Positions 9,528 through 17,903 of a DNA stretch of 24,165 bases are shown here, piece by piece. Source of the stretch: Clostridia bacterium (GTDB lineage Bacteria > Bacillota > Clostridia > Christensenellales > UBA1242); NCBI GenBank assembly GCA_017618475.1, contig JAFZUF010000025.1:1-24165 (forward strand), given 5' to 3'. The translations under genes were made by a program, and so were the position numbers. The number at the start of each line of letters is the position of its first letter. Positions within the stretch are counted from its first letter, which is position 1. Below the pieces are notes generated by a model that had not been told where the DNA came from, ran no database searches, and saw only the letters and a program-made list of their open reading frames with translations.

Positions 9528-9841
9528 TTTGGTGGATAAAACTTGGATGTAAATTGACCCACTTCATCATACACATAATTGCGAGTCCCTGGTGCATAAC
9601 CACTTTTCTTTTCGTGGTTGCTTATCCGGATAGTTATTCCATCCACCTCTAAGTAACTTGATATGAGTATTGGTTTGTCGGTGATGATGGTACGTTCCTT
9701 ATTTTTGTACCAATGTTTTTGACCGCGCTTAAACCAATGCGTTTCGTATTCAGCCCAAGGAAGCTTTTCACATTTGTCCAGTATTTTTTCCACCATACGT
9801 TTATGAAAAGACTTCCAATAGGCGACATCCTTTTTCTTCAT
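9524..9841 (-). CDS. Hypothetical protein (SxY...IRISNH motif)
   Basis: Likely start 9841 via ATGA overlap with the kinase stop. Confidence 0.6.
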   Translation of the reverse strand: MKKKDVAYWKSFHKRMVEKILDKCEKLPWAEYETHWFKRGQKHWYKNKERTIITDKPILISSYLEVDGITIRISNHEKKSGYAPGTRNYVYDEVGQFTSKFYPPK

Positions 9842-10452
9842 AGCAAGTTTTCTTTTGCCCAATCGGCCGGTTCACGATTGTCAAAATCTTCCAAATGTTG
9901 TGTATAATCATACAACCGCACGTTTGGCCATGTGGCCATACCGCCATTACTCATCAACCAACGACCCAACAATGTGTGGCAAACTGGATTGTCCAATCTT
10001 TTACCATAATACAAGGCCCAAAAAGCATCATACACTTTACTCATGTCGGTGTATAATTCTGGACGCTCCGATTTAATCTTTTCGAAGCGCGTTAAATATT
10101 CCTGTTTGGGTGGTAAACAAAACACAATCCTGTCAGCAATTTGGCGCCATTGTTGTAAATGTTCACCAATAAAATTCAGCACCCTAACTTGGTCGCTTTG
10201 ATTATCGAAAATCATGGAATAAACAAACAAGGTTAACCAATGGCGGTCTAAAACGACCGGCGACAAATCCCGTTTGTGTGCCCAATCATCACCAAAGGCC
10301 ATCATTGGTTCGTGTTGTAAAATGGTTTGTTTCTTTTCCGGATAGTTACTTACATGGATATACGCAGCCTTGAAATCATGTATCAAGGCTTGCGCTAAAT
10401 AACTTTTCCCGGAACCATCAGGCCCTTCAATCTGGATTACCTTCTGTCCCAT
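9838..10452 (-). CDS. Thymidylate-kinase-like dNMP kinase
   Basis: VIQIEGPDGSGKS P-loop and VVLDRHWLT (DR motif); GGAGAGG RBS before ATG 10452; overlaps the queC 3' end. Confidence 0.8.
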   Translation of the reverse strand: MGQKVIQIEGPDGSGKSYLAQALIHDFKAAYIHVSNYPEKKQTILQHEPMMAFGDDWAHKRDLSPVVLDRHWLTLFVYSMIFDNQSDQVRVLNFIGEHLQQWRQIADRIVFCLPPKQEYLTRFEKIKSERPELYTDMSKVYDAFWALYYGKRLDNPVCHTLLGRWLMSNGGMATWPNVRLYDYTQHLEDFDNREPADWAKENLL

Positions 10453-11218
10453 GTACCTCTCCTTCTGGTTTAACATAGTTAACCGGGTCTTTTAAGCCAG
10501 CTTTGGCAAACGCCTCGATACGTTCGGTACAACTTCCACATGTACCACAACTTTCACCATCGGCATTTGGTTTATAACAGGTCAAAGTCCGGCTCATAAT
10601 ATAATCAAAATCCAAACCCAATTGTTCACAGCATTTATGGCAATCAATAACAATGTCGCCTTTGTCGCCGTTCAAATATGGTAAATACAATTGGACTTTT
10701 TCAGCATCCCAATTTCCTGCAGCAAAAGCCTTGTACAACTGGTCAAAAAATTCAGGTGTGCAATCCGGATAAATTGTGTGGTCGCCATTATGGACACCCA
10801 TTGCGATTTTAACATCAACATTATTTCGTTTGGCCACCGACAAAGCCACTCCATAAATCAACGATGCAAATATTGCATTGCGATTTGGAACCACCGTAAT
10901 TTTCATGTTTTCGTCCGCATAATTACCATCCGGAGTTTGTAATCCGGAATCGGTTAATGATGAATAAAACCGGCCCATAATATCGCTTAAATCAAAGTTT
11001 TCGTAAAACACCGGTAAATGTTTTTCCGCGGTTAAATAAGAAACCACTTCGTCCAACCGGCTGCGCTCCCAACCATTTTGATGGGAACCATAATCAAAGT
11101 TTATGATTTGGACTTTATACCCTTCGGCCAATAAGTGAATCAACAAACTGGTTGAATCCATACCCCCGGAACACGAAAGCACGGCATATTTGTTGTTTGT
11201 ATCATTTTCCGGATTCAT
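10427..11218 (-). CDS. queC: 7-cyano-7-deazaguanine (preQ0) synthase QueC
   Basis: SGGMDS PP-loop, VPNRNAIF, GVHNGDHTIYPDC, and Zn site TCY...CGTCGSCTER. Confidence 0.95.
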   Translation of the reverse strand: MNPENDTNNKYAVLSCSGGMDSTSLLIHLLAEGYKVQIINFDYGSHQNGWERSRLDEVVSYLTAEKHLPVFYENFDLSDIMGRFYSSLTDSGLQTPDGNYADENMKITVVPNRNAIFASLIYGVALSVAKRNNVDVKIAMGVHNGDHTIYPDCTPEFFDQLYKAFAAGNWDAEKVQLYLPYLNGDKGDIVIDCHKCCEQLGLDFDYIMSRTLTCYKPNADGESCGTCGSCTERIEAFAKAGLKDPVNYVKPEGEVHGTEGNPD

Positions 11219-11447
11219 TTTTTATCCCCTTTGTTTTATACCATTTGTTCTTGTTCTTGTACCGCCACATCATGACGCTTATACAATTCTTTGATTTTAA
11301 CGAACCATCGCGGTTGAATGGGTTAATACCCAATTCCAACAGCTTGGCCAAGCATTTATCGCTTAACCGGCCGGCCACCTTTTCTTTCAAGGTGTTCATA
11401 TCAGTTAACAATGCTTTCTTTTCCAATTGTGCTTTTATTGACAACAT
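11202..11447 (-). CDS. Hypothetical basic protein
   Basis: 81 aa; overlaps the queC start. Confidence 0.6.
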   Translation of the reverse strand: MLSIKAQLEKKALLTDMNTLKEKVAGRLSDKCLAKLLELGINPFNRDGSLKSKNCISVMMWRYKNKNKWYKTKGIKNESGK

Positions 11448-11454
11448 TTTCTTC

Positions 11455-12018
11455 TCATTTGATTATAATTATTGTTACGTTGGTTGTGTTATGGTTCAGG
11501 CAACAAATACCTTCCTGCAAATCAATTACCCTATCGCATTCCGGAATTTCAATTCCAATACCGCAACACAGTTTTCTTAAATTGCTTGTTATTTGTGGAT
11601 TTGTTTTACGATAAATTGTTTTCCATTGTATTGCGGGCAAGGTTAAATCATACTTGGCTGCAACTTGGGGCTTCCTGTTTTCACACGCCTTGATGTAGTC
11701 CCCAAATGAATCCATCCCCGCGGTACATATAATTTCAACGGCTTCATCATAATCTTTCCCAACACCGAAACCTTCAAACGGTTGTGGGATTGATGTGGTA
11801 CCAACCAATTCCTCTTCCAGGGGCAATACTTTATGGTTATCGCCATAAAATATTCGGTTGGGTTTTTCCAATATTTTTTCCAACCCATATTTCAGGATGT
11901 TATCCAGAACCCGGTCAATGAGTTGTTCATTATTATATTTTTGGGCAATTTTAACGACTTCCCAAATGTCGCCGCCATTTTTGATTGTGGCTACAATCTG
12001 TTTTTCAAGATTTGTCAT
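11455..12018 (-). CDS. Hypothetical protein
   Basis: 187 aa; AAAGGA RBS; first gene after a promoter-like region. Confidence 0.7.
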   Translation of the reverse strand: MTNLEKQIVATIKNGGDIWEVVKIAQKYNNEQLIDRVLDNILKYGLEKILEKPNRIFYGDNHKVLPLEEELVGTTSIPQPFEGFGVGKDYDEAVEIICTAGMDSFGDYIKACENRKPQVAAKYDLTLPAIQWKTIYRKTNPQITSNLRKLCCGIGIEIPECDRVIDLQEGICCLNHNTTNVTIIIIK

Positions 12019-12051
12019 TTTACTTTCCTTTGCTTTCTATGGTTTGTTTAT

Positions 12052-12105
12052 ATTATAACCGTTTTTTTATAAATGTGTACATTTTTCTCCGGGATGAACA
12101 CATTC
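12052..12105 (-). promoter_or_regulatory. Probable promoter with inverted operator-like pair
   Basis: TATAAT at 12057-12052; AATGTGTACAT-N11-ATGAACACATT inverted repeat (one mismatch) over the -35 region; -35 itself is weak. Confidence 0.45.
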
Positions 12106-16444: not shown

Positions 16445-16508
16445 TGTGTTTTATTGGTGCGCCCGATAAGTCAAGCAAAGGAAACTTTGAGCGCACCAAT
16501 AAAACACA
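16445..16508. repeat. Perfect 18-bp inverted repeat enclosing a GAAA-tetraloop hairpin
   Basis: TGTGTTTTATTGGTGCGC (16445-16462) / GCGCACCAATAAAACACA (16491-16508); inner CAAAG-GAAA-CTTTG. Confidence 0.85.
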
Positions 16509-16562
16509 TTCACCTTATAACAAAGGCCATCACAACATGTGTTATGGTGGCCCTATAATATA

Positions 16563-16796
16563 CTACTGTGGCAAAACATCGTGGTCAAAGCCCAGGAATT
16601 GTTTTGTTCGCATTGCCCGGTTGATACGTTTCACATTCTCCAAACACGGATAGCGTGTCCCATTCAACCAGCGGTAAAATGTGGATGGTGTAATTTTCAT
16701 TTTTTCAACGAAAAGTACGGCCTTGTCTCTTTCAACAAGTGTCCACAGCAATTTAGTTAAAGCGTCCGGACGGCGCCATTTTGACATTTTAGGCAT
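16563..16796 (-). CDS. Cro/CI-type (XRE) helix-turn-helix regulator
   Basis: FVEKMKITPSTFYRWLNGTRYPCLENVKRI; AAGGAG RBS; first gene of the leftward arm. Confidence 0.85.
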   Translation of the reverse strand: MPKMSKWRRPDALTKLLWTLVERDKAVLFVEKMKITPSTFYRWLNGTRYPCLENVKRINRAMRTKQFLGFDHDVLPQ

Positions 16797-17058
16797 TTTT
16801 TTCTCCTTTGTTATGGTTAAATGCTCCGATTTATAACCACCGGCCGAAAGAATGTGTTAAGAAGTGAACCAAAAATGAACCAAAAATGAACATCGCCGCA
16901 AAGTTGGAGCAAAATTCAATTCTTCCAAAAAGCTCTGCGCTTAAGCTATAGCTCAAATGCGAAACTTGACAAAACGGCCATCCCCGGGCTCCTTGTGAGT
17001 AATAAATAATTAAATAAATACTCCCATAAAATAATATTACCATGAAGTGATTATGTTT

Positions 17059-17200
17059 CGTTTAGACTGTACACTGCCCTGACGATTAGACTATACACTA
17101 TCCTAACGTTTAGGCTGTACACTGTTATACGTTTATTTTATCGTTTACCCGACGATTAGACTGTACGCGTAATGGACGTTTAGGCTGGTGTAATGCTATT
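17059..17200. repeat. Iteron-like tandem array, ~24-bp period (candidate replication origin)
   Basis: Five units CG(T/A)TTAG(A/G)CT(G/A)TAC.. starting at 17059, 17083, 17107, 17153 and 17177 (the last diverges after GCTG), plus two half units (CGTTTA) at 17130 and 17142; AT-rich tract at 17000-17040. Confidence 0.75.
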
Positions 17201-17432
17201 CGTTAAAAAAGTATACCCCTTGGATACATCGCGTAAGTGATTGTGGATACAATTTTTGAGACAATCCATAATCGTTGTTTTTGGTATCCTTGGAACACAG
17301 TCTGTGCAAATCGGGTAATCGCTACACAACGCATATTTAATCGTTTGTATATTGCTACATGGTAATCAATGAACCCATTAAATTGTTTGTGTCGCTATAA
17401 AGCAACCGAATAAAACACAAAAAGGAGCGATT

Positions 17433-17903
17433 ATGGCAAAACCTGCAACCTATGACCGGATGGCCAAAATTATCAAAGCACAAAGTGAACACCTTGACAA
17501 GGACTTGTTTATCATTGGCCTGACGCGTGGTGGTTTAATACCGGCGGCTATGTATGCCCGTTTCAGCGGTGCCACGTTGATGGGTTCATTTGACCCTAAA
17601 AAAGAAACAACCGTTTTGGCGCCAACATTGATGTGCCAGGGTGGCACCACATTATACACGTCCGATTTTGTTTTTTGCGACGACATACTGGATTCCGGCA
17701 AAACCTTTCGCACCATGTTGGAAAAGTTTCCAGATTCAAAGTTTGCATTTGTTTATGTTCGTAACAAAACTTGGAATGAATTAACCAAGGCCGAAAAGAA
17801 ACACATTATTGCTATTCCCAAAAAAATTATGGATGACCACTATATCGATTTTCCGTGGGAGCAATGGGATAGTGAACCAATTAACGATGAAGAGTCGTTA
17901 TAA
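17433..17903 (+). CDS. Type I phosphoribosyltransferase, Gpt (xanthine-guanine PRT)-like
   Basis: IIGLTRGGLIPA, PRPP loop FCDDILDSGKT, C-terminal YIDFPWE; AAGGAG RBS. Confidence 0.88.
   Translation: MAKPATYDRMAKIIKAQSEHLDKDLFIIGLTRGGLIPAAMYARFSGATLMGSFDPKKETTVLAPTLMCQGGTTLYTSDFVFCDDILDSGKTFRTMLEKFPDSKFAFVYVRNKTWNELTKAEKKHIIAIPKKIMDDHYIDFPWEQWDSEPINDEESL

Follow-up and report, generated by a model that had tools for sequence, protein, structure and literature searches.

The window analysed here, 24,165 bases long, is the whole of contig JAFZUF010000025.1, the longest contig in a fragmented bin of 684 kb, and it is a fragment of a siphovirus-like phage. Its genes lie in two arms separated by a divergent intergenic region of about 390 nt (17044..17432), directly after which the gene studied here opens the plus arm (17433..17903, plus strand). 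This gene encodes a 156-aa protein (P0001) resembling the type I purine phosphoribosyltransferases (PRTases) of the Gpt, or xanthine-guanine phosphoribosyltransferase (XGPRT), kind; it heads the arm with the deazaguanine genes, as the preliminary description of this DNA had stated. The plus arm continues, in this order, with a 183-aa open reading frame (ORF), a Cas4-like nuclease, a DpdA3-like protein, QueD, a dUTPase, Gp157, FolE, a ParB-N protein and a second DpdA-like protein. The minus arm (1-17043) holds a terminase-like gene, DUF5675, a haloacid dehalogenase (HAD) phosphatase of the polynucleotide kinase/phosphatase (PNKP) type, a thymidylate kinase (TMK)-like kinase, QueC and many small ORFs.

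The pathway entry enzyme FolE (GTP cyclohydrolase I) is encoded at 22145..22762 on the plus strand (PF01227, 6e-64), QueD (6-carboxytetrahydropterin synthase) at 20065..20571 on the same strand (PF01242, 9.5e-24; TIGR03367), and QueC, the synthase of 7-cyano-7-deazaguanine (preQ0), at 10427..11218 on the minus strand (PF06508, 3e-41); no QueE was found inside the window. The DpdA3-type protein (19307..20071, plus strand), of tRNA-guanine transglycosylase (TGT) fold, is presumed to exchange 7-deazaguanine for guanine. Its ORF had no Pfam or PHROG match, and tblastn with it gave no match; a hidden Markov model seeded on ORF 19274-20071 retrieved the published prototype, phiST CGPG_00065, at an E-value of 2e-10, and hhalign related the two at 99% over 247 columns. 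The second DpdA-like transglycosylase (P0004; 23171..23992, plus strand) matched PHROG 887, queuine tRNA-ribosyltransferase (1e-13), and its gene is coupled to that of the ParB-N domain protein (22765..23178, plus strand; PHROG 620, 1.7e-33; PF02195 in relatives). In pairwise comparison the two DpdA-like proteins of the window share only a short H-L-L-G-C motif, and their profiles align weakly in hhalign.

The contig stops 173 nt past the second DpdA-like gene (23993-24165), and the assembly therefore lacks QueE, the polymerase and roughly half of the phage's genome. Longer relatives, 75-94% identical, have the same gene order as the window and encode QueE, a 283-aa radical-SAM protein, about 2.4 kb beyond the DpdA-like gene (L003:18981-19832). 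Downstream of QueE they carry an 843-aa DNA polymerase (PHROG 1252, 9e-101) with a primase-like tail (L202:10898-13988), followed by a 191-aa second P-loop protein (PHROG 2107 'thymidylate kinase', 3.6e-9) with no similarity to the window kinase. The phage genome may be about 49.5 kb long, to judge by two independent relatives' contigs, which measure 49.46 and 49.51 kb. The preliminary description had suggested inspecting the rest of the genome for a DNA polymerase or a reductase; the relatives do encode a polymerase. A ribonucleotide reductase turned up neither in the window nor in the approximately 30 kb that were read of the 49.5-kb relatives, a few kb at each end lying beyond that part. 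The window and a stretch of about 30 kb read in one such relative likewise showed no dGTPase. The phage thus has the make-up of a DpdA3-type system, with a DpdA3-family protein, FolE and QueD in the window and QueE in the longer relatives.

We compared P0001 with curated families and with known structures. It matched Pfam PF00156 weakly (E 1.2e-4, 21.9 bits; cut-off 26.3), PHROG 8995 'phosphoribosyl transferase' at 3.5e-10, and the NCBIfam xanthine PRTase family NF006613 at 1.6e-11 (44 bits; cut-off 138); a sequence match to E. coli Gpt structures was obtained at 2e-4. The AlphaFold model had a mean confidence (pLDDT) of 87, and the top 23 PDB matches of a Foldseek search with it were all E. 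coli or Yersinia XGPRT (E 1e-9 to 6e-8, TM-score 0.62-0.68). The pyrophosphate loop R32-G-G and the phosphoribosyl pyrophosphate (PRPP) motif D83-D84-I-L-D87-S-G-K-T are intact. On its sequence and predicted fold, P0001 is a distant relative of Gpt with intact catalytic motifs, not an equivalog, and it most likely converts guanine or xanthine and PRPP to GMP or XMP.

The same motifs were then followed through the viral family, which is small (75 representatives at E 1e-3 among 1.84 billion clusters). Each residue of the PRPP and R-G-G motifs is conserved in between 85 and 88 of the 88 viral members, R32 in all 88. D87 of P0001, kept in 87 of the 88, aligns with E. coli Gpt D92 and is equivalent to it by position in the PRPP-binding motif; Gpt D92 is the counterpart of human HGPRT D137, the residue that contacts purine N7. 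7-Deazapurines lack the N7 atom. Two relatives 40-43% identical to the window PRTase, P0011 (L018:10001-10420) and P0012, no longer have either the R-G-G loop or the D-D...D-S-G-x-T motif and retain the C-terminal F-P-W-E segment; judged by these sequences, they are probably inactive or repurposed.

To place the gene in its wider context, we scanned IMG/VR with the PRTase family alignment, which returned 80 loci at 23-38% identity, and ran que-gene profiles on them. These profiles were built iteratively, so that drift is possible; as checks, the que and DpdA3 profiles recovered the annotated FolE, QueE, QueD and DpdA3 of phiST, and sampled QueE members matched the Fer4_12 or radical-SAM Pfam families. 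As a control, the kinase alignment was used to retrieve 80 loci totalling 1.35 Mb. The results showed at least one of FolE, QueE, QueD and QueC on the PRTase strand in 61/80 loci, usually within 2 kb. QueE was present in 57/80 (median gap 0.65 kb), FolE in 44/80 (median gap 0.47 kb), QueD in 36/80 and QueC in 11/80; when the PRTases were clustered at 50% identity, 22 of the 28 clusters were linked to que genes. The control loci contained no FolE, QueC, QueD, QueE, DpdA3 or PRTase. The link between the PRTase and the deazaguanine genes is therefore strong, phylogenetically broad and far beyond chance; the preliminary description had called for a test of this co-occurrence.

Gene fusions and the surroundings of distant members gave the same picture. 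One IMG/VR locus encodes a full PRTase-FolE fusion in a single ORF with both Pfam domains (L037:9827-10771), and the 297-aa 'GTP cyclohydrolase' of Pseudomonas phage NP1 (L200 1300-2199, minus strand) carries the C-terminal half of a PRTase domain N-terminal to FolE. The gene orders are FolE-PRTase in L020, QueC...QueD-QueE...PolA-FolE-PRTase in L023 and dNMP kinase-FolE-PRTase in Brevundimonas phage StAshley. On the short contig L020 (1440-1949), FolE and the PRTase are followed by a 67-aa ORF, a dGTP-diphosphohydrolase N-terminal domain (PF18909, MazZ-like) and ThyX; a dGTP-removing enzyme at this place, predicted from sequence, would fit a route at the level of the nucleotide pool in that phage.

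A GMP reductase (GuaC), above the NF003470 and TIGR01305 cut-offs, adjoins the viral PRTase in 11 loci, without que genes in L047, L059, L071, L077, L095 and L098 and with them in L035, L084, L088, L090 and L099. The pair would form a salvage path from guanine through GMP to IMP in these phages. We considered GMP reductase as a tailoring enzyme like that of the tubercidin cluster and rejected this, the protein being a true GuaC equivalog that also occurs without que genes. Since GuaC accompanies the PRTase both with and without que genes, it does not discriminate between roles. No residues were found that separate the que-linked from the GMP-reductase-linked PRTases, which show the same active-site pattern.

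In large phages (contigs up to 280 kb; L031, L039, L044, L048, L069, L080 and others), we observed a conserved block of a 518-aa DpdA3-like protein, 177-aa, 131-aa and 363-aa proteins, FolE, the PRTase, a HinT-like HIT protein and QueE. QueD is often added, as are an NAD epimerase and an HhH-GPD glycosylase, and QueC was undetected in most. The block is also present in the Synechococcus phage BUCT-ZZ01 (L105, Kyanoviridae), and some carriers are T4-like; the pair of 131-aa and 363-aa genes trails DpdA3-like genes in other lineages too. Two larger clusters of proteins from the viral loci, of about 424 and 518 aa, are DpdA3-like: hhalign related them to the DpdA3 profile at 90% and 84% and to one another at 96.5%, and TIGR00449 was matched weakly. 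Flanks of 6 kb or more on each side were available for 28 PRTase loci; 23 of these were que-positive, and 17 of the 23 contained a DpdA3-like gene.

Cultured phages were searched with the PRTase profile A1. Members of the family were found in CP220 (CPT_0182), phiST (CGPG_00045), StAshley, the cyanophage BUCT-ZZ01 and immuto_13-6C, where the order is QueE...PRTase-FolE, together with the partial domain fused to FolE in NP1; profile A1 found no PRTase in CAjan, Iggy, Rosebush, KVP40, phiSM, R5C, Moby or BSTP8. Thus, all DpdA3-type cultured phages tested (CP220, phiST and the immuto type) have the family; among eight cultured phages of other lineages that carry FolE, seven lack it and NP1 has its partial copy. 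In CP220, the QueE profile did not match the radical-SAM gene that lies two genes downstream of the PRTase. Complete replacement of G has been reported for CP220, phiST and immuto 2-6A and credited to the DpdA3 class (PMC10516641), and it is in such phages that most guanine would be released.

The preliminary description had also joined the kinase, the HAD phosphatase and the dUTPase to the PRTase in an arm acting on nucleotides. All of these genes are present. The TMK-like P-loop kinase (P0002; 9838..10452, minus strand) matched PHROG 761 'thymidylate kinase' at 8e-13. Its ORF spans 9838-10476, and the real start is the ATG at 10452, which has an AAGGAG ribosome-binding site upstream and is the start used by the homologues; the gene therefore extends exactly 26 nt into the end of queC (stop at 10427), as described before. 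The overlap arises from a 15-residue C-terminal extension of QueC in the window phage and is not conserved, since in the relatives QueC is 248 aa long and the kinase gene adjoins queC with no shared bases. P0002 has the E-G-x-D-G-x-G-K-S/T P-loop and the D-R-H/Y motif, and it scored 18.7 bits against PF02223 (cut-off 27) and 18.5 against TIGR00041 (cut-off 83), in both cases over the P-loop only. With its model (pLDDT 89), the top Foldseek matches were TMKs, deoxynucleoside kinases and YorR at TM-scores of 0.4-0.58, a loose likeness.

The surroundings of the kinase homologues were more telling. Among 80 viral loci, ThyA was found in 70 and ThyX in 9, mostly 0-30 nt away, a dUTPase in 23 and que genes in none; a cultured homologue, gp013 of pelagiphage HTVC200P, also abuts thymidylate synthase. 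The adjacency to queC is confined to the lineage of the window, in which the only such gene near the kinase is the dUTPase (adjacent to it in L018); the window itself showed no thymidylate synthase. With thymidylate synthase at 79/80 homologue loci and que genes at 0/80, P0002 is best read, from its sequence relatives and predicted fold, as an ordinary phage dTMP kinase, and the proposal that it belongs with queC falls on its own terms. The dUTPase (20574..21029, plus strand; PF00692, 3.6e-19; PHROG 135, 2e-32) is a canonical trimeric enzyme with all five motifs readable. The HAD protein (6945..7499, minus strand), whose gene lies outside the interval that the preliminary description had given, matched PF25109 HAD_PNKP at 8e-35 and PHROGs 505 and 415 'polynucleotide kinase', and a protein of this type occurred in 1/80 PRTase loci; by sequence it is of the end-healing polynucleotide 3'-phosphatase type, unrelated to the deazaguanine pathway. 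None of the three proteins is part of that pathway, and the nucleotide-level arm built on them is not upheld.

We lean, with modest confidence, towards a reading in which the PRTase recycles the guanine freed by transglycosylation towards GTP for FolE, with the kinase, HAD protein and dUTPase standing outside the pathway. The phage would make preQ0 through FolE, QueD and QueC, with QueE encoded beyond the contig end, and the DpdA3-type transglycosylase and the second, ParB-coupled DpdA-like enzyme would place it in DNA by base exchange. Each exchange would free one guanine, and each new deazaguanine would cost one GTP. We infer that the Gpt-like PRTase takes the freed guanine (or xanthine or hypoxanthine) and PRPP to GMP, which host kinases would raise to GTP for FolE, so that the precursor would be regenerated. 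Removal of competing free guanine should also act as a 'guanine sink' and pull the exchange towards completion. This recycling is preferred because the N7-directed Asp is kept in 87/88 members while 7-deazapurines have no N7, because the que-linked PRTases cannot be told apart at the active site from those paired with GuaC in a plain purine-salvage context, because a DpdA3-like enzyme, which would release guanine, accompanies the PRTase in 17 of the 23 well-flanked que-positive loci, and because two transglycosylases are encoded by the window phage, in which neither a reductase nor a dGTPase was seen. In L018, the PRPP and pyrophosphate motifs of the PRTase are destroyed, and DpdA3, QueC, QueD, QueE and FolE are all kept, suggesting that the PRTase is a helper and not an obligatory step.

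Several points weigh against recycling. Hosts usually have a Gpt or Hpt of their own. The fusion with FolE does not join consecutive reactions, since GTP is reached from GMP only after two phosphorylations. P0001 misses the cut-offs of both curated families (NF006613 and PF00156), has Tyr137 at the stacking position where the family has Trp, and belongs to a lineage with Arg where Gpt has Lys115. Many PRTase clusters lack QueC, like the tubercidin cluster, and PRTases accepting 7-carboxy-7-deazaguanine (CDG) or preQ0 exist, as shown for TubE and proposed for ToyH (PMC6112128). Complete replacement by a post-replicative DpdA3 enzyme is itself unproven, because DpdA3 activity was never shown in vitro (PMC10516641).

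The main rival is a nucleotide-level route, which we regard as possible though doubtful. In it, the PRTase would, like TubE and ToyH, phosphoribosylate the 7-deazaguanine base itself, which would be preQ0 in this phage and CDG where clusters lack QueC; kinases, a ribonucleotide reductase and the phage DNA polymerase would carry the product into DNA before or during replication, and the DpdA-like enzymes would merely mop up or act otherwise. Complete base replacement usually proceeds through the dNTP pool. The excess of QueE (57/80) over QueC (11/80) at the PRTase loci would suit a CDG substrate. In phiST and StAshley the neighbours of the PRTase are ribonucleotide reductase and a dNMP kinase, phages related to that of the window have their own DNA polymerase and second P-loop kinase-like protein, and in L020 FolE-PRTase is followed by the MazZ-like domain. 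CDG:PRPP PRTase activity is proven for TubE, whose gene lies with homologues of FolE, QueD and QueE and without QueC (PMC6112128; bioRxiv 10.64898/2026.04.15.718813). In addition, the PRTase occurs in the lineages of the phages reported with 100% G replacement, and the study of these phages reports 7-amido-7-deazaguanine (ADG) nucleoside in CP220-infected cells and could not show DpdA3 to be active (PMC10516641).

Set against this route are the N7-directed Asp and the uniform active site of que-linked and GuaC-linked PRTases, and the presence of a DpdA3-like gene where flanks allow. The window phage itself has two transglycosylases, the sole dNTPase found in it is the dUTPase, no reductase or dGTPase turned up in the window or in the part of the relative that was read, and the queC-adjacent kinase belongs to a ThyA/ThyX-linked family. 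L018 lost the PRPP motif yet kept the pathway. Moreover, the window contains no dedicated dGTP-removing dNTPase or nucleoside monophosphate kinase of the kind that marks pre-replicative systems such as the hydroxymethylcytosine of T4 and the Z-type of S-2L. It is unlikely, in our judgement, that in DpdA3-type phages at large the PRTase makes a CDG or preQ0 nucleotide and that the full G replacement of CP220, phiST and immuto 2-6A runs through the nucleotide pool, contrary to the published post-replicative exchange. Of the two roles that the preliminary description had offered for the PRTase, recycling of released guanine to GTP and FolE fits better, and the nucleotide-level route is less favoured.

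A more general explanation would make the PRTase a purine-salvage gene that supplies nucleotides from degraded host nucleic acid and shares a 'nucleotide metabolism' module with the que genes. The 6/28 PRTase clusters without a nearby que gene, the PRTases that have a true GMP reductase beside them but lack que genes, and the phiST PRTase, which adjoins the reductase 19 genes from the que cluster, would all suit it. We nevertheless consider it improbable, given que genes at 61/80 loci versus 0/80 in the control, adjacency or fusion to FolE or QueE in many unrelated lineages, and absence from 7 of 8 FolE-carrying cultured phages of other lineages. It is very improbable that the protein is non-catalytic and binds purines or nucleotides as a regulator or partner of FolE or DpdA3, a role to which the degenerate PRPP and pyrophosphate motifs of P0011 and P0012 and the truncated PRTase-derived domain on NP1 FolE could point, since the motifs of P0001 are intact and their positions are kept in 85-88/88 viral members.

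The remaining features of the window touch the pathway less directly. The Cas4-like PD-(D/E)XK nuclease (18571-19260, plus strand; TIGR00372, 2.7e-4; PHROG 1706) and the Gp157 protein (21042-21554, plus strand) are interleaved with the que genes, an arrangement kept in all relatives. An 83-aa ORF (1009-1260) gave a weak thioredoxin/glutaredoxin-like match (PF13192, 1.6e-3) and has a C-P-N-C motif. The 183-aa ORF, a 594-aa ORF and most small ORFs had no match in Pfam, NCBIfam or PHROG, and megablast of 9838-17903 against GenBank phages gave no match. Promoter and terminator scans of 17044..17432 yielded nothing above shuffle expectation, the sigma-70-like matches included. The 684-kb bin is bacterial and 78% complete, with its own TGT on contig C123 and one other PRTase-domain match only; the radical-SAM, PRTase and TGT matches elsewhere in the bin all lie on contigs other than the window.

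As far as we found, the PRTase is a genuine and apparently unpublished companion of DpdA3-type systems: full-text searches of the open literature returned no paper linking a PRTase to deazaguanine systems, and it goes unmentioned in both key papers (PMC10516641; Hutinet et al. 2019). In the published model of phage 7-deazaguanine DNA, which comprises FolE, QueD, QueE and QueC plus DpdA, nothing deals with the guanine set free and no enzyme works at the nucleotide level. A PRTase associated with the DpdA3 class could supply both the recycling and the driving force that the model lacks and so make complete exchange affordable, or else it could be the entry to a pre-replicative route. Either would bear on how all the G of a genome is replaced, and the cultured phages phiST, CP220, StAshley and immuto carry the family. 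The gene may also serve as a marker for annotating DpdA3-type systems.

Among known systems, the best match of P0001 in both sequence and fold is the Gpt of E. coli and Yersinia (XGPRT; PDB 1A95-1A98, 1NUL, 6KP5; NF006613). Like Gpt, it has about 150 aa, the type I PRTase fold, the R-G-G pyrophosphate loop, the acidic pair with D-S/T-G-x-T including the N7-directed Asp, and a C-terminal aromatic residue followed by F-P-W-E. Unlike Gpt, to which it is about 20% identical, it has Tyr for the stacking Trp and Arg for Lys115, is encoded by a phage, and lies inside a 7-deazaguanine DNA-modification cluster. P0002 shares the P-loop, the D-R motif and the fold with phage thymidylate kinases (PHROG 761 / 2107; HTVC200P gp013) and differs from them in falling below the Pfam and TIGR TMK cut-offs and in sitting after queC.

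The tubercidin and toyocamycin clusters (TubE/ToyH; PMC6112128) likewise combine a purine-type PRTase with homologues of FolE, QueD and QueE, and TubE shows that a PRTase can take a 7-deazaguanine base (PMC6112128). TubE is a 194-aa Streptomyces protein, and its cluster has GMP reductase, decarboxylase and Nudix tailoring genes and no enzymes for insertion into nucleic acid, in contrast to the window, which has two DpdA-like genes, no GMP reductase and a HAD protein of the PNKP type. The DpdA3 phages phiST, CP220 and Flavobacterium immuto (PMC10516641) share with the window phage FolE, QueD, QueE, a DpdA3-family protein and the PRTase family. Their published description lists no PRTase, and the word is absent from its main text (Cui, Hutinet et al. 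2023, PMC10516641). The window phage differs from them in having an additional QueC and a ParB-coupled DpdA-like gene, and its DNA modification is predicted from its gene content.

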